A DNA stretch of 64,000 nt. Source: Escherichia coli. GTDB taxonomy: Bacteria > Pseudomonadota > Gammaproteobacteria > Enterobacterales > Enterobacteriaceae. The notes beneath the pieces were generated by a model that was not told where the DNA came from, searched no databases, and saw only the letters and a list, made by a program, of their open reading frames with translations. The DNA lies in the NCBI RefSeq assembly GCF_030384885.1, contig NZ_CP128613.1, one strand, 5' to 3'. Made by a program: the position numbers and the translations under genes. Shown in pieces: positions 411 through 37,433 of the stretch. Numbering within the stretch: position 1 is the stretch's first letter; every line of letters begins with the position of its first letter.

Positions 411-1283
411 ATGCTGGCGTTTACCTGGATCGCGCTGCGATTTATCCATTTCACCTCGCTGATGCTGGTTTTTGGCTTCGCAATGTACGGTGCCTGGCTG
501 GCCCCCTTAACGATTCGTCGCTTGCTGACGAAGCGTTTTCTGCGTTTACAACAGCACGCTGCCGTCTGGAGTTTGATCAGTGCCACTGCAATGCTCGCCG
601 TTCAGGGCGGGTTGATGGGAACGGGATGGTCAGATGTATTTTCGCCAAACATTTGGCAGGCTGTTTTGCAAACGCAGTTTGGTGGTGTCTGGTTATGGCA
701 AATTGTTCTCGCCCTCGTAACGTTGATCGTCGCCCTTATGCAACCGCGGAATATGCCACGTTTGCTGTTTATGCTCACTACCGCGCAATTTATTCTGCTG
801 GCGGGAGTCGGGCATGCGACGCTGAATGAAGGGGTAACGGCGAAAATCCATCAGACTAATCACGCGATTCACCTGATCTGTGCGGCGGCGTGGTTTGGAG
901 GATTACTTCCGGTGCTCTGGTGTATGCAACTCATCAAAGGCCGTTGGCGACACCAGGCTATTCAGGCGCTGATGCGTTTTTCCTGGTGCGGGCATTTTGC
1001 GGTGATCGGCGTACTGGCAAGCGGCGTGCTTAATGCATTGTTGATTACCAGATTTCCCCCCACGCTTACGACTTACTGGGGCCAACTCTTATTGCTCAAA
1101 GCCATACTGGTGATGATTATGGTGGTCATCGCGCTGGCTAATCGTTATGTTCTTGTACCGCGCATGAGGCAGGATGAAGATCGTGCGGCTCCCTGGTTTG
1201 TGTGGATGACTAAACTCGAATGGGCGATAGGTGCGGTAGTGCTGGTGATCATCAGCCTGCTTGCGACTCTCGAACCTTTTTGA
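411..1283 (+). CDS. yebZ: CopD-family inner-membrane protein YebZ
   Basis: ORF 290 aa, polytopic hydrophobic product; conserved yobA-yebZ-yebY order. Confidence 0.9.
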   Translation: MLAFTWIALRFIHFTSLMLVFGFAMYGAWLAPLTIRRLLTKRFLRLQQHAAVWSLISATAMLAVQGGLMGTGWSDVFSPNIWQAVLQTQFGGVWLWQIVLALVTLIVALMQPRNMPRLLFMLTTAQFILLAGVGHATLNEGVTAKIHQTNHAIHLICAAAWFGGLLPVLWCMQLIKGRWRHQAIQALMRFSWCGHFAVIGVLASGVLNALLITRFPPTLTTYWGQLLLLKAILVMIMVVIALANRYVLVPRMRQDEDRAAPWFVWMTKLEWAIGAVVLVIISLLATLEPF

Positions 1284-1710: not shown

Positions 1711-1794
1711 ATTTAAGCTGATGACCACCACGCTTTTTATTGACCATTTTGCACGCAAACTGGAAAACCTGGCGTCGTCATCTATTCTTAAAGG

Positions 1795-1898
1795 GCAAGG
1801 CAACTAAGCCTGCATTAATGCCAACTTTTAGCGCACGGCTCTCTCCCAAGAGCCATTTCCCTGGACCGAATACAGGAATCGTGTTCGGTCTCTTTTTA
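1795..1898 (+). ncRNA. sdsR: RpoS-dependent small RNA SdsR (RyeB)
   Basis: Sequence GCAAGGCAACTAAGCCTGCATTAATGCCAACTTTTAGCGCACGG...CCGAATACAGGAATCGTGTTCGGTCTCTTTTT matches recalled SdsR (~104 nt); ends in hairpin plus T-run; CTATTCT -10-like element upstream. Confidence 0.85.
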
Positions 1899-2031
1899 TC
1901 TGTTAAAAGCCAGAAGCATTCCCTTCGCTGACTTTATAGTCAACCATAACACACACTCTACTGTCTGAGTCCAGCGTTTTTTAACATTCTTGTTAAGATT
2001 ATGTGATCTTTAGCGCGGGAGGAAAATATTG

Positions 2032-16795: not shown

Positions 16796-17410
16796 ATTAT
16801 ACGCACTGTCATGGTGCAACTGCTTCAATTTAAAACTCTGGTCTGACTTCAAATAATTATCATATTATTTATTTGCGTAACGGGATATCAGAAAAAGATA
16901 TTTAGCCCATTAATTTATTAGGATGTTTACATCGGATTTGTGATTAAGCGTGTTATTATTTATTAGCGAAACGTTTCTCTCTTGATTTTTTTGCGCATTC
17001 ATCAATTTTTCTTATTTTAAATTTACAATACCTTTGGGGATTGACTTCTCTTTGGGGTGATTGATAGCCGTTAACTGACTGTTTTATGAGAAAAAGTGAT
17101 ATAACTTTTTATTCATTGCATAGCAGAAAATGTGATATTGCACGCACTATGTAATAACTTCTCCCATTGGCCTGGAACAACTGAACTTATTGAACTATGT
17201 TAGAAAATACGTCAGTTTAAGTATCTGCCTGAACTGGCAAGGTTAAGCACAATGATATATCGGCGCGTATTCCGTTGCATAAGTGTGCAAAAAAAGTGGA
17301 AGACGTATCGAGATTTGTGCGTCTGATCGAGACATGTTTAAAAATGGCTTGCCATAATTAACGTTGTATGTGATAACAGATTTCGGGTTAAACGAGGTAC
17401 AGTTCTGTTT

Positions 17411-17554
17411 ATGTGTGGCATTTTCAGTAAAGAAGTCCTGAGTAAACACGTTGACGTTGAATACCGCTTCTCTGCCGAGCCTTATATTGGTGCCTCATGC
17501 AGTAATGTGTCAGTTTTATCTATGTTATGCCTGCGGGCGAAGAAAACAATCTAA
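17411..17554 (+). CDS. yobF: Small protein YobF (47 aa), co-transcribed with cspC
   Basis: ATG ORF (below track threshold) giving [47 protein letters not shown]; ends 12 nt before cspC. Confidence 0.8.
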
Positions 17555-17566
17555 GGAATTTTTCAA

Positions 17567-17776
17567 ATGGCAAAGATTAAAGGTCAGGTTAAGTGGTTCA
17601 ACGAGTCTAAAGGTTTTGGCTTCATTACTCCGGCTGATGGCAGCAAAGACGTGTTCGTACACTTCTCCGCTATCCAGGGTAATGGCTTCAAAACTCTGGC
17701 TGAAGGTCAGAACGTTGAGTTCGAAATTCAGGACGGTCAGAAAGGTCCGGCAGCTGTTAACGTAACAGCTATCTGA
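17567..17776 (+). CDS. cspC: Cold-shock-domain protein CspC
   Basis: 69-aa product [37 protein letters not shown]... with RNP1/RNP2 motifs. Confidence 0.95.
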
Positions 17777-17822
17777 TCGAATCCACTGATCTGAAGTGTG
17801 AAGACACTTCAATCTCGCTATA

Positions 17823-17849
17823 AAGCCTCGTCGAATGCGAGGCTTTTTA
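17823..17849 (+). terminator. Intrinsic terminator after cspC
   Basis: Hairpin AAGCCTCG-TCGAAT-GCGAGGCTT followed by TTTT. Confidence 0.8.
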
Positions 17850-17941
17850 CTTTGTTTTATCTTCGCTCCTGGCGTTCGGATATTTGCCCGCCGCGTGATT
17901 CGCGTTACACTTGCGGCCTTTAGTATCCTGCCGGAGTTGTC

Positions 17942-18751
17942 ATGTCGTTTTCCTGTCCACTTTGCCATCAGCCTCTTTCGCGTGAAAAAAACAGCTATAT
18001 CTGTCCCCAGCGACATCAGTTTGATATGGCGAAAGAAGGGTATGTCAATCTGCTGCCCGTTCAGCATAAACGGTCTCGTGATCCGGGCGACAGCGCGGAA
18101 ATGATGCAAGCACGCCGCGCATTCTTAGATGCCGGACATTATCAGCCGCTGCGTGATGCAATTGTCGCCCAACTGCGGGAACGGCTTGATGAAAAGGCCA
18201 CGGCGGTGCTGGATATTGGCTGTGGTGAAGGGTATTACACACACGCATTTGCCGATGCGCTGCCCGAAATCACCACGTTTGGCCTGGATGTCTCGAAGGT
18301 AGCGATAAAAGCGGCGGCGAAACGCTATCCGCAGGTCACTTTTTGTGTTGCTTCCAGCCACCGTTTGCCGTTTTCCGATACCAGTATGGACGCCATAATA
18401 CGTATTTACGCGCCGTGTAAAGCAGAAGAATTAGCGCGAGTAGTGAAGCCCGGCGGTTGGGTCATTACTGCCACGCCGGGACCGCGACATTTGATGGAGC
18501 TGAAGGGGCTGATTTACAATGAAGTACATCTTCACGCACCTCATGCAGAACAACTGGAAGGTTTTACATTACAGCAGAGTGATGAGTTGTGTTATCCGAT
18601 GCGTCTTCGCGGTGACGAAGCCGTCGCGTTATTGCAGATGACGCCGTTTGCCTGGCGTGCGAAACCAGAAGTCTGGCAAACGCTGGCAGCAAAAGAAGTG
18701 TTCGACTGCCAGACGGACTTTAATATTCACCTCTGGCAGCGTTCTTATTAA
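17942..18751 (+). CDS. rlmA: 23S rRNA m1G745 methyltransferase RlmA (RrmA)
   Basis: 269-aa product with N-terminal Cys4 zinc-binding element (CPLCHQ...CPQRH) and SAM-MTase motif DIGCGEGYY. Confidence 0.92.
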
Positions 18752-19314
18752 CCGTGGAAGTGCGTCCAGAGGATCTGGACGCCGATGCCGATCAGTACCA
18801 GCCCACCGAGAATTTCCGCTTTCTTCCCAATAATTGAGCCGATAAAGCGACCAACCATCATCCCTAATGTCGACATAATCAAGGTTGCACAACCAATGGC
18901 CAATGCGGTCGCGATAATGTTGACCTGCAGGAAGGCGAGACCAACACCTACAGCCATCGCATCCAGGCTGGTGGCAATCGCGGTGGTTACCAGTAGCCAG
19001 AAACCGTGTCGACGGCGCGGTTCTTCATCTTCATCATCTGCGCCACGAAAACCCTCAATAATCATTCGCCCGCCGAGGAATATCAGCAGCACAAACGCAA
19101 TCCAGTGGTTCCATTCAAGGACAAACCGGCTGGCTAACATGCCCATTCCCCAGCCGATCAGCGGCGTCAGGGTTTCGACGGCACCAAAAATAAGGCCAGT
19201 TCGCAAAGCTTCAGAAAATTTCGGTTTATGGAGGGTGGCACCTTTACCGATTGATGCAGCAAATGCATCCATCGACATACCAAACGCAAGAAGAACAGTA
19301 GCAGTGATATTCAT
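18748..19314 (-). CDS. mntP: Manganese efflux pump MntP
   Basis: 188-aa product [25 protein letters not shown]...; start at internal Met of ORF 18748..19368; overlaps rlmA stop by 4 nt (convergent). Confidence 0.9.
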
Positions 19315-19321
19315 GACAACG

Positions 19322-19536
19322 TCCTGACCGGGGTATCCATAAAACACATCATCGCCCCCAGCAAACATGCATACATGAACAACAAACTGCGATGATTTTC
19401 GCGTTCATGCAGGCATAGCGATTGATGTGCATATGGTCTCGCCTGACTGAAAGTGTTCAGTCCGTACGTGCCACGTTTTGCAACGAGTATGTTGACACGT
19501 ACATTTCCGGAATCTGGAAATCGGCTACTCCCCAAA
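19322..19536 (-). promoter_or_regulatory. yybP-ykoY-family Mn(2+) riboswitch in the mntP 5' leader
   Basis: Minus-strand leader contains the conserved GGGGAGUAGCC element (plus-strand GGCTACTCCCC at ~19523..19533) and downstream GGAUACCCCGG-like segment; E. coli mntP is known to carry this riboswitch; exact ends approximate. Confidence 0.65.
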
Positions 19537-19742
19537 TGAGGGCGCAACATTAACATATTTTTAGAATATAAAACAACTGTTGGGATATATTATTTCAGCA
19601 GTTAATTGATAACGATTGTCATTTAGATTTATATATCAATGAAACGTTAAAATAAATAACAAATAAGGGAAGGGGTAATATAGCCTAAGCTATGTCTGAT
19701 TATTAAAAATACACTAAACATAGCTTTGGCTAAATTGATAAC

Positions 19743-20201
19743 TTATTGAGTTGAAACGAGAAGCTTATAAATTTTTTCCAGATCGTCGATATTTCGAACG
19801 CGAATTAACAGCCGGCGCTGTTCTAATTGCATCACCAACACGCCATCTTCCGACAAGTTCATCGCTTTGATTCGGCTATATTCAATCCAGACATTGGCGA
19901 AGAAAAAACCTTTTTGTTTAAAGATGATCTTCGGAACGCGGATCCAGAATATATAAAACCCCATTAGAGCCAGTGCACTTAATAACCATGTCGTTATTTG
20001 CGCGCCATGATTCGTGACGTTGTTATAGATAAGAATGACAATCAGTCCTACGAAGATAACGCTGTCGATGCGGCCACGTCGGAGCAAAGGAATTGCCAGC
20101 AGGGTGGGGCCGTTGCGGCGGGGCATGATGAACTGATCGTAGATCGCGAAGGTCAGGAGTGCGGCGATAAAAAGAATCAGTACCAGGTCCGTGATTGTCA
20201 T
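19743..20201 (-). CDS. yobD: UPF0266 inner-membrane protein YobD
   Basis: 152-aa [34 protein letters not shown]... with three predicted TM helices. Confidence 0.88.
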
Positions 20202-35702: not shown

Positions 35703-37388
35703 TTGAAGAAGGTTTGGCTTAACCGTTATCCCGCGGACGTTCCGACGGAGATCAACCCTGACCGTTATCAATCTCTGGTAGATATGTTTGAGCAGTCGGT
35801 CGCGCGCTACGCCGATCAACCCGCGTTTGTGAATATGGGGGAGGTGATGACCTTCCGCAAACTGGAAGAACGCAGTCGCGCGTTTGCCGCTTATTTGCAA
35901 CAAGGGTTGGGACTGAAGAAAGGCGATCGCGTTGCGTTGATGATGCCTAATTTATTGCAATATCCGGTGGCGCTGTTTGGCATTTTGCGTGCCGGGATGA
36001 TTGTCGTAAACGTTAACCCGTTGTATACCCCGCGTGAACTTGAGCATCAGCTTAACGATAGCGGCGCATCGGCGATTGTTATCGTGTCTAACTTTGCCCA
36101 CACTCTGGAAAAAGTGGTTGATAAAACCGCCGTTCAGCACGTTATTCTGACCCGTATGGGCGATCAGCTATCCACGGCAAAAGGCACGGTAGTCAATTTC
36201 GTTGTTAAATACATCAAGCGTCTGGTGCCGAAATACCATCTGCCAGATGCCATTTCATTTCGTAGCGCCCTGCACAACGGCTACCGGATGCAGTACGTCA
36301 AACCCGAACTGGTGCCGGAAGATTTAGCTTTCCTGCAATATACCGGCGGTACCACTGGTGTGGCGAAAGGCGCGATGCTGACTCACCGCAATATGCTGGC
36401 GAATCTGGAACAAGTTAACGCGACTTACGGGCCGCTGTTGCATCCGGGCAAAGAGCTGGTGGTGACGGCACTGCCGCTGTATCACATTTTTGCGCTGACC
36501 ATTAACTGCCTGCTGTTTATTGAACTGGGCGGGCAGAACCTGCTTATCACTAACCCGCGCGATATTCCGGGGTTGGTAAAAGAGTTAGCGAAATATCCGT
36601 TTACCGCGATAACCGGCGTTAACACCTTGTTCAATGCGTTGCTGAACAATAAAGAGTTCCAGCAGCTGGATTTCTCCAGTCTGCACCTTTCCGCAGGCGG
36701 TGGGATGCCTGTTCAGCAAGTGGTGGCAGAACGTTGGGTGAAACTGACAGGACAGTATCTGCTGGAAGGTTATGGCCTGACCGAGTGTGCGCCGCTGGTC
36801 AGCGTTAACCCGTATGATATTGATTATCATAGTGGTAGCATCGGTTTGCCGGTGCCGTCGACGGAAGCCAAACTGGTGGATGATGATGATAATGAAGTAC
36901 CACCGGGTCAACCGGGTGAGCTTTGTGTCAAAGGACCGCAGGTGATGCTGGGTTACTGGCAGCGTCCGGATGCTACCGATGAAATCATCAAAAATGGCTG
37001 GTTACACACCGGCGATATCGCGGTGATGGATGAAGAAGGATTCCTGCGCATTGTCGATCGTAAAAAAGACATGATTCTGGTTTCCGGTTTTAACGTCTAT
37101 CCCAACGAGATTGAAGATGTCGTCATGCAGCATCCTGGCGTACAGGAAGTCGCGGCTGTTGGCGTACCTTCCGGCTCCAGTGGTGAAGCGGTGAAAATCT
37201 TCGTTGTGAAAAAAGATCCATCGCTTACCGAAGAGTCACTGGTGACTTTTTGCCGCCGTCAGCTCACGGGCTACAAAGTACCGAAGCTGGTAGAGTTTCG
37301 TGATGAGTTACCGAAATCTAACGTCGGAAAAATTTTGCGACGAGAATTACGTGACGAAGCGCGCGGCAAAGTGGACAATAAAGCCTGA
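35703..37388 (+). CDS. fadD: Long-chain-fatty-acid--CoA ligase FadD
   Basis: 561-aa product (M)[31 protein letters not shown]... with AMP-binding motif ([12 protein letters not shown]); initiates at TTG 35703, not at the upstream in-frame ATG. Confidence 0.92.
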
Positions 37389-37405
37389 GCGTTAAGTCAG
37401 TCGTC

Positions 37406-37433
37406 AGACGCCGGTTAATCCGGCGTTTTTTTT
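37406..37433 (+). terminator. Intrinsic terminator after fadD, immediately upstream of rnd
   Basis: GACGCCGG-TTAAT-CCGGCGT hairpin followed by T8. Confidence 0.8.

Follow-up and report, generated by a model that had tools for sequence, protein, structure and literature searches.

A yybP-ykoY Mn2+ riboswitch upstream of mntP (yebN) in Escherichia coli K-12 was reportedly described by Dambach et al. in 2015. The aptamer of E. coli mntP has been crystallised (PDB 4Y1M; PMC12153347), and work on K-12 has documented that Mn2+ binds selectively where L1 and L3 meet and that gene activation depends on Mn2+ (PMC12153347, PMC9603457, PMC10197570). Mn2+ bound between loops L1 and L3 in their docked state lends stability to the P1.1 switch helix and raises translation of mntP (PMC12153347, PMC10197570). 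The element is a Mn-ON translational switch, in which high Mn2+ disfavours a stem-loop that sequesters the ribosome-binding site (RBS; PMC10197570). Without Mn, strand invasion of P1.1 disrupts P1.1 and L1 once the transcript has reached about 205 nt (PMC12153347). Switching needs native RNA polymerase, and RNA that has been refolded or transcribed by T7 polymerase does not switch; the RNA near the mntP RBS is dynamic, and probing showed no clear Mn-dependent change there (PMC12153347). Rho-dependent termination also takes place within the leader and is partly relieved by Mn (PMC11647493). For the route from closure of the aptamer to the mntP RBS, the conserved platform partners described below point to specific mutations.

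The locus considered here lies in a 64-kb stretch of E. coli DNA (the window). Its interval 19322..19536, on the minus strand, is almost certainly the mntP 5' leader and holds the known E. coli yybP-ykoY Mn2+ riboswitch. This identity, claimed in an earlier note on the same DNA, is borne out by an aptamer that differs from that of K-12 by one base, by a four-way junction in its MFE fold and by a match to the Rfam family RF00080 with E = 6e-10. The riboswitch itself is already known and well characterised, and the window copy is essentially the reference sequence. The gene start that had been placed at 19314 is likewise correct: read from the minus strand, an ATG at 19314..19312 opens an ORF of 188 aa that matches the NCBIfam equivalog NF008546 'manganese efflux pump MntP' over its full length (414.6 bits vs. 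a cut-off of 214), and RefSeq gives the same ORF. A 1.1-kb stretch around mntP shares 100% identity with E. coli 2013C-4282, in which RefSeq puts mntP between yobD and rlmA. Relative to K-12 MG1655 the leader differs at six positions, a single one of which, C19455 (T in K-12), belongs to the aptamer, where it sits in the apical loop of P4. The remaining five fall in the platform, four of them close to the apex of its hairpin and one between the Shine-Dalgarno sequence (SD) and the AUG. Of 5,426 complete E. coli genomes, 5,422 carry the aptamer; among the E. coli RefSeq rows listed there is essentially no annotated feature at the aptamer site, and the RefSeq records of 2013C-4282 and K-12 carry no riboswitch feature at this leader. 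A small gene 'yobI', which we had presumed to be sited in the mntP leader, is annotated in neither of these two RefSeq records, and a literature search on it was uninformative. Published reporter assays, probing and crystallography used the K-12 sequence (PMC12153347, PMC11647493, PMC10197570). The numbering of PMC12153347 (A11 in L1, A48 in L3) maps exactly onto the window with +1 at 19539, i.e. a leader of 225 nt; the leader has also been quoted as 229 nt (PMC11647493), in which case +1 would be 19543.

The combined L1 + L3 signature, GGGGAGTAG-N18-48-TCAACATAC, has a single match in the 64-kb window, at minus-strand positions 19533..19487, and no match in any of 100 shuffles. The motif GGGGAGUAGCC (GGGGAGTAGCC as DNA), which had been put at about 19523..19533 on the minus strand, is found exactly at 19533..19523 when read from that strand. 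Folding, which had been suggested as a check for a four-way junction, does return one: for the isolated aptamer (19541..19425) the MFE and centroid structures are both the four-way junction, at -37.5 kcal/mol (z = -3.2), and all six helices are present. The parts of the aptamer are as follows.

19430..19538 (approximate), minus strand: Mn2+ aptamer, a yybP-ykoY four-way junction with C19538-G19430 as the outer P1.1 pair (MFE fold, RF00080, K-12 comparison)
19532..19538, minus strand: 5' strand of the P1.1 'switch helix', CAUUUGG, which pairs with CCAUAUG (19436..19430) with one U.U mismatch (MFE and covariation)
19525..19533, minus strand: L1 5' block, GGGGAGUAG, an exact motif match in which 19529 is A11, the extruded adenosine; P1.2 (19525..19523) begins with the last G of the block
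19503..19521, minus strand: P2 hairpin, AUUUCC / GGAAAU (MFE fold)
19464..19502, minus strand: P3 leg, with P3.1 (19502..19493 / 19473..19464) and P3.2 (19485..19482 / 19477..19474) (MFE fold)
19486..19492, minus strand: L3 metal-site loop, ACAUACU, with A48 at 19492 (MFE fold)
19445..19462, minus strand: P4 hairpin, GACUGAA / UUCAGUC, with apical loop 19455..19452 (MFE fold)
19430..19443, minus strand: 3' closing strand GGC-GAGA-CCAUAUG, comprising P1.2 (19443..19441), L1 GAGA (19440..19437) and P1.1 (19436..19430)

The L1 internal loop sets GGAGUA opposite GAGA, between P1.1 and P1.2, and P1.2 is formed by 19525..19523 with 19443..19441. The 3' L1 strand (G)AGA(C) is present as GGC-GAGA-CC at 19443..19435. 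The conserved L3 loop CAACAUAC is represented by GUCAACAUACU at 19496..19486, which aligns to the RF00080 consensus with high posterior probability. The L1 block GGGGAGUAG is invariant across 28 aligned mntP-linked leaders, relatives that were retrieved by a pattern requiring this block. As drawn in the earlier note, the interval covers most of the 5' leader and spans both the aptamer (about 19538..19430) and the expression platform (19429..19312). It leaves out the outermost two 5' bases of P1.1 (19538..19537), merges aptamer and platform into one, and was set down with the 3' half of the aptamer, GGCGAGACC (19443..19435), overlooked.

The RF00080 search proposed for this leader gave a divided answer. 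In Rfam 15 the gathering score of the family is 45 bits, and a gathering-threshold scan of the whole 64-kb window returned four families, RF00080 not among them. A sensitive scan of 19200..19800 does find RF00080, on the minus strand from 19541 to 19445, with the significant E value given above and a score of 41.9 bits that misses the gathering cut-off. The validated riboswitch of K-12 MG1655 scores 41.6 bits and the E. albertii element 35.5 bits, both under the cut-off; the Citrobacter, Providencia, Xanthomonas and Denitrificimonas relatives exceed it, at 45.4 to 61.4 bits. Because the validated K-12 element fails too, the cut-off is conservative, and the sub-threshold score reflects the current model as applied to this subgroup. 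We did not take the gathering miss as a refutation, given the significance of the local match and the near-equal score of the validated K-12 element. In the RF00080 model the GGGGAGUAG strand is unpaired and the model ends short of the 3' closing strand; as it carries neither P1.1 nor P1.2 pairing, these helices were tested separately. Pipelines run at the gathering threshold overlook the E. coli mntP riboswitch, and a missing gathering-level RF00080 match does not mean that the riboswitch is absent. Matches to microRNA families (mir-282 and others) at 19666..19747 were rejected as artefacts of an inverted repeat of MntR boxes further upstream.

A pattern in which only L1 and L3 were fixed retrieved at least 120 loci from one-genome-per-species contigs, from Proteobacteria, Cyanobacteria, Firmicutes and others. 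The [GA]AGAC anchor is present in 110 of 122 segments (121 relatives and the window), and the register of the 110 distinct aptamers was set by the L1, L3, [GA]AGAC and UGG anchors, with no alignment program. Cells of P1.1, P1.2, P3.1 and P3.2 are canonical in 90% of cases; shuffling the partners lowers this to 70%, and sliding the register to 26-45%. Since the UGG and AGAC anchors had been picked to maximise pairing, the percentage is somewhat inflated, but compensatory exchanges cannot be created in this way. Most helix positions show several pair types (e.g. GC, AU, CG and UA) and many two-sided exchanges. P1.2 pairs are 96-100% canonical, with CG/UA exchanges, and those of P3.1 and P3.2 are 85-100% canonical, with multiple two-sided exchanges. 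The U.U mismatch in P1.1 of the window is the commonest state at that position among the 110 aptamers. The P2 and P4 segments, which are unanchored, fold into hairpins of 4 bp or more in 107 and 80 of the 110 relatives, respectively, and are stabler than their own shuffles. On this comparative evidence, all six helices are backed by 110 relatives from other species, with covariation in four of them (P1.1, P1.2, P3.1 and P3.2). For 31 of the 121 sampled aptamers, a MntP homologue lies 159-228 nt downstream on the same strand; the distance in the window is 219 nt.

With these data, it is scarcely credible that the leader lacks riboswitch function and resembles the family by chance. The sub-threshold Rfam score and the lack of RefSeq annotation at this site could be read that way, but the E value of the local match, the failure of every shuffle to reproduce the L1 + L3 signature, the single aptamer base that separates the window from the validated K-12 element, the near-universal presence of the aptamer in complete E. 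coli genomes (5,422 of 5,426) and the covariation of its helices across phyla all argue against it.

The earlier note had also pointed to a second element, GGAUACCCCGG (GGATACCCCGG as DNA), about 200 nt downstream of the first, and we find it at 19338..19328, 195 nt downstream of GGGGAGTAGCC. The role implied for it, that of a riboswitch signature, does not hold: the predicted structures make it a strand of the expression platform, outside the aptamer. Its resemblance to the complement of the L1 5' strand, and its pairing with GGGG in the full-leader MFE, could suggest that it is a piece of the Mn-sensing aptamer. This is extremely unlikely, because it is GGCGAGACC, some 100 nt before it, that closes the aptamer, which forms a complete four-way junction without GGAUACCCCGG. 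Moreover, the closing strand in every relative is G[CA][GA]AGACC, and the pairing of GGAUACCCCGG competes with P1.1 and is no part of the ligand-bound fold. As a platform strand, GGAUACCCCGG holds the last two G of an invading UAUGG (19338..19337) together with the pre-RBS strand CCCCGG. The platform, about 115 nt following the aptamer (19429..19312), ends in the SD (19325..19322) and the AUG (19314), the distance from the aptamer end to the mntP AUG being 116 nt on the same strand. It comprises the following parts, given here with the regulated gene.

19344..19430, minus strand: platform helix A:A', GCACAUCA (19430..19423) with UGAUGUGU (19351..19344), UCGCU/GGCGA, with an apical hairpin (fold and covariation)
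19356..19361, minus strand: local G-rich strand CUGGGG, which resembles the aptamer 5' UUGGGG and is complementary to the pre-RBS strand
19337..19341, minus strand: UAUGG, which can invade P1.1 by pairing with CCAUA (19436..19432) (full-leader MFE)
19328..19333, minus strand: CCCCGG, pre-RBS strand and core of the second element, with UUGGGG (19535..19530) or the local CUGGGG (19361..19356) as partners
19312..19325, minus strand: RBS, with SD AGGA (19325..19322), a 7-nt spacer and the mntP AUG (19314..19312)
18748..19314, minus strand: mntP CDS, 188 aa and stop, the Mn2+ exporter gene under regulation (NCBIfam NF008546 and RefSeq annotation of identical DNA)

In the MFE structure of the full leader, P1.1 is open. 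CCAUA and GCACAUCA are paired with UAUGG (19341..19337) and UGAUGUGU (19351..19344), and the GGGG of L1 (19533..19530) is paired with CCCC (19333..19330). The platform strand is complementary to the 3' strand of P1.1, so the aptamer and platform pairings are mutually exclusive. Across the 28 mntP-linked leaders, all eight lower pairs of the A:A' helix change on both sides and 85% are paired, and the average duplex energy is -23.0 kcal/mol for cognate vs. -13.7 kcal/mol for non-cognate strands; the apex of this helix carries four of the five platform differences from K-12. This anti-P1.1 helix is the best-supported feature of the platform, and it fits the 'single helix' of PMC12153347.

The pre-RBS strand CCCCGG has two alternative partners, both conserved. 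With the 5' strand UUGGGG it is paired in 89% of cases across the leaders; as the UUGGGG side is invariant, no covariation is possible for this pairing. With the local CUGGGG strand it is paired in 82%, and five of eight pairs change on both sides in the 28 leaders (cognate -13.7 vs. non-cognate -10.6 kcal/mol). The local hairpin crosses the A:A' helix, and the two are therefore mutually exclusive or form a pseudoknot; the hairpin shows up in predicted folds when the aptamer is held closed. The unconstrained ensemble is P1.1-open in 28 of 28 mntP-linked leaders, and the closed state is costlier in 27 of them (by 5 to 20 kcal/mol), with a tie in one; for the window the cost is +6.6 kcal/mol. 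An open ground state agrees with a default-off switch that stays closed only with ligand.

The same stretch of the platform contains an upstream ORF (AUG 19376, 21 codons) whose UGA stop overlaps the mntP AUG (AUGA), and the G-rich 19359..19355 could be a weak SD for its internal AUGs. Control of mntP translation by termination-reinitiation coupling to this ORF is nevertheless improbable. AUG 19376 has no recognisable SD, and neither length nor frame is kept in close relatives, in which the ORF has 30, 12 or 9 codons or, in the E. cloacae group, is absent. In addition, the AUGs sit within strands conserved for base pairing, and the AUGA overlap is trivial because codon 2 of mntP is Asn.

From the fold predictions, and with comparative data indicating which strands are conserved pairing partners, we infer the following route from aptamer to RBS. 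Without Mn2+, the platform strand UGAUGUGU..UAUGG (19351..19337) would zip up with 19436..19423, the 3' strand of P1.1. UUGGGG (19535..19530), freed in this way, could then pair with CCCCGG (19333..19328), 2 nt upstream of the SD, which would close a domain of about 200 nt with the RBS at its base, and this P1.1-open form would be the thermodynamic ground state. With Mn2+ bound, P1.1 would resist invasion, and the pre-RBS strand would be single-stranded or held in the weaker local hairpin with CUGGGG (19361..19356), allowing ribosomes to load. Translation may in turn shield the transcript from Rho, and the switching decision would probably be made co-transcriptionally.

Equilibrium folding of the window and the 28 leaders showed no consistent exposure of the RBS on aptamer closure, which matches the published probing (PMC12153347). 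In ensembles computed with a bonus or penalty on closure, the mean unpaired probability of the SD is 0.44 closed vs. 0.35 open (p = 0.02), with a higher value in the closed state in only 18 of 28 leaders. For the window, the difference in RBS unfolding cost between the closed and open states reverses sign with the 3' boundary, of which three were tried. Constrained MFE and partition functions run on the window for two candidate transcription starts also gave weak or sign-changing results, and the predicted window structures never pair the SD itself strongly.

One tentative reading of these pairings is that the mntP platform is a three-partner strand-exchange device rather than the published 'single helix', with CCCCGG having two conserved, mutually exclusive partners. 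If so, the local CUGGGG would act as a decoy, keeping hold of the pre-RBS strand for as long as the aptamer stays closed. It is also possible, if doubtful, that the main output is transcriptional, the leader being a Rho-dependent attenuator on which Mn2+ acts chiefly by lowering Rho termination and not by directly unmasking the RBS. Bicyclomycin induces mntP about 20-fold, and Rho terminates in vitro within the leader and early ORF in a manner relieved by Mn (PMC11647493). The lack of a robust Mn-state-dependent change in SD accessibility, both in our folding and in published probing, points the same way. By contrast, translational fusions with constitutive promoters respond to Mn, and published work counts the element among the translational switches (PMC10197570, PMC12153347); there is also no intrinsic terminator in the leader, and a search of 19250..19800 found no terminator-like site. 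The Rho and translational outputs are probably coupled and not alternatives, because better ribosome loading is expected to relieve Rho termination. We therefore treat Rho as a co-mechanism beside the translational route proposed above.

Upstream of the leader, we searched for the sites of MntR and Fur, which had been named as co-regulators, and for a promoter.

19678..19695 and 19718..19735, no strand assigned: two MntR-box-like palindromes, about 140-195 bp upstream of +1 (consensus match)
19547..19576, minus strand: candidate promoter picked by eye (low confidence), with TTGTTT at 19576..19571, an 18-nt spacer containing TG at 19555..19554, and TAATGT at 19552..19547

The palindromes are the only matches in the window to the MntR-box consensus used at two or fewer mismatches, where 0.21 would be expected by chance. 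They form an inverted repeat within an intergenic stretch of 22-28% GC. At the mntP promoter, MntR and Fur activate by relieving silencing by H-NS (PMC8632737), and the position of the palindromes in an AT-rich stretch fits such activation. Co-regulation by MntR and Fur is consistent with these two sites and with the published work. The best Fur-box match, 14/19 at 19608..19626, does not stand above several unrelated sites in the window and is a weak candidate. With low confidence, the candidate promoter would set the transcription start near 19539-19543, and its weak hexamers would suit activator dependence. A sigma-70 consensus scan did not call the 19576..19547 candidate. The sole call of that scan, at 19706..19677, was rejected, as it overlaps a MntR box and is at odds with the mapped leader length.

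Among known systems, the K-12 mntP (yebN) riboswitch is the closest, sharing the locus (yobD - mntP - rlmA), leader length, L1, L3, P1.1, SD and start codon, and the differences in the window spare every conserved or switching strand. The E. coli alx (PRE) riboswitch, which responds to Mn2+ and alkaline pH, resembles mntP in belonging to the same family, in being a translational ON switch whose P1.1 strand re-pairs in the platform, and in preceding the gene of a putative Mn exporter (PMC12153347). Unlike mntP, alx has a three-way junction, a variant L3, a response to alkaline pH and a dynamic P1.1/L1; its platform consists of several helices including an intrinsic terminator, whereas mntP combines a four-way junction with a single platform helix and no terminator (PMC12153347). 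The transcriptional yybP-ykoY riboswitches of Firmicutes (B. subtilis yybP and ykoY, L. lactis yoaB) and the X. oryzae aptamer have the same architecture, with an L1/L3 core and a P1.1 switch helix (PMC12153347). The Firmicutes platform is an intrinsic terminator/antiterminator, while the window element has no terminator and ends at the RBS; several of the Firmicute relatives sampled here carry U-tracts, as for intrinsic-terminator platforms.

The mntP leaders of Providencia, Photorhabdus, Marinobacter, Psychrobacter and Xanthomonas share with the window the aptamer, the A:A' helix, a local hairpin of G-strand and C-strand abutting the SD and the open ground state. The clades appear to differ in how the RBS is sequestered. 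Outside Escherichia, Citrobacter and Enterobacter, the predicted open state pairs the SD with the P4-3'/P1.2-3' strand of the aptamer (GGUUGG...), at -12 to -20 kcal/mol. In these three genera the SD:P4-3' pairing is weak (-6.4 kcal/mol in the window), and the predicted partner is instead the 5' GGGG, which pairs with the pre-RBS CCCC. If the three-partner reading were true, this clade would have swapped its RBS-sequestering partner from the P4-3' strand of the aptamer to the 5' strand. The leaders of Escherichia and Citrobacter are further set apart by an extra apical hairpin insertion.

By sequence identity, the window represents a somewhat divergent E. coli lineage, since a 1.1-kb stretch (18700..19800) that has no differences from E. 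coli 2013C-4282 (100% identity) shows just 95–99% identity with 5,420 further complete genomes of the species. Taken alone, the aptamer reaches 99% identity or better in 4,590 genomes, and 5,422 of the 5,426 complete genomes for this species carry it; among the E. coli records listed, RefSeq annotation at the aptamer is essentially absent.

Upstream of mntP, three candidate regulatory sites were located:
19678..19695, MntR-box-like palindrome (consensus match, at most two mismatches)
19718..19735, MntR-box-like palindrome (consensus match, at most two mismatches)
19608..19626, Fur-box-like site (14/19 consensus positions)

The palindromes, spaced 40 bp apart in a stretch of 22–28% GC and lying ~140–195 bp upstream of where mntP transcription begins, are the only such matches in 64 kb at up to two mismatches (chance expectation 0.21). 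They also account for matches to mir-282 and mir-4662 in a sensitive Rfam scan, which are spurious. The Fur-box-like site has the MntR boxes on one side and the promoter on the other, and its score does not exceed those of several unrelated sites in the window.

Close to the mntP start codon, the leader contains two further features:
19356..19361 and 19328..19333, minus strand, local G-strand/C-strand hairpin (columns 239–246 and 288–295 of alignment A2)
19311..19376, minus strand, upstream ORF of 21 codons (AUG at 19376, UGA stop)

The hairpin, which adjoins the SD, shows covariation across genera in A2 (GGUUGGGG/CCCCAACC, GGUCGGGC/GCCCGACC) and could form together with the main platform helix only as a pseudoknot; the mntP riboswitch literature covered makes no mention of it. 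The UGA of the upstream ORF overlaps the mntP AUG (AUGA), and a second ATG at 19368, separate from this ORF, shares the mntP frame. Because neither its length nor its frame is kept in Citrobacter or Enterobacter relatives, the ORF is probably incidental.

Elsewhere in the window, the cspA-type thermoregulator family RF01766 matches strongly (135 bits, 17391..17851, plus strand) across the yobF-cspC unit, whose csp gene is 'cspE' according to PGAP in the identical RefSeq record but cspC in the K-12 annotation. SraC/RyeA (minus, 175 bits) and SdsR/RyeB (plus, 114 bits) form an overlapping antisense sRNA pair at 1757..1901, and sroD is matched over its full length at 37347..37432 (plus, 115 bits).

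RF00080 matches scored with Rfam 15 were:
window 19445..19541, minus strand
962..1058 of comparison locus L002
1071..1167 of comparison locus L026

The window copy scores 41.9 bits, versus a gathering score of 45 bits for this family in Rfam 15. The experimentally validated K-12 mntP riboswitch (41.6 bits) and that of E. albertii (35.5 bits) also fall under this value, and the gathering score thus leaves out all three mntP riboswitches.
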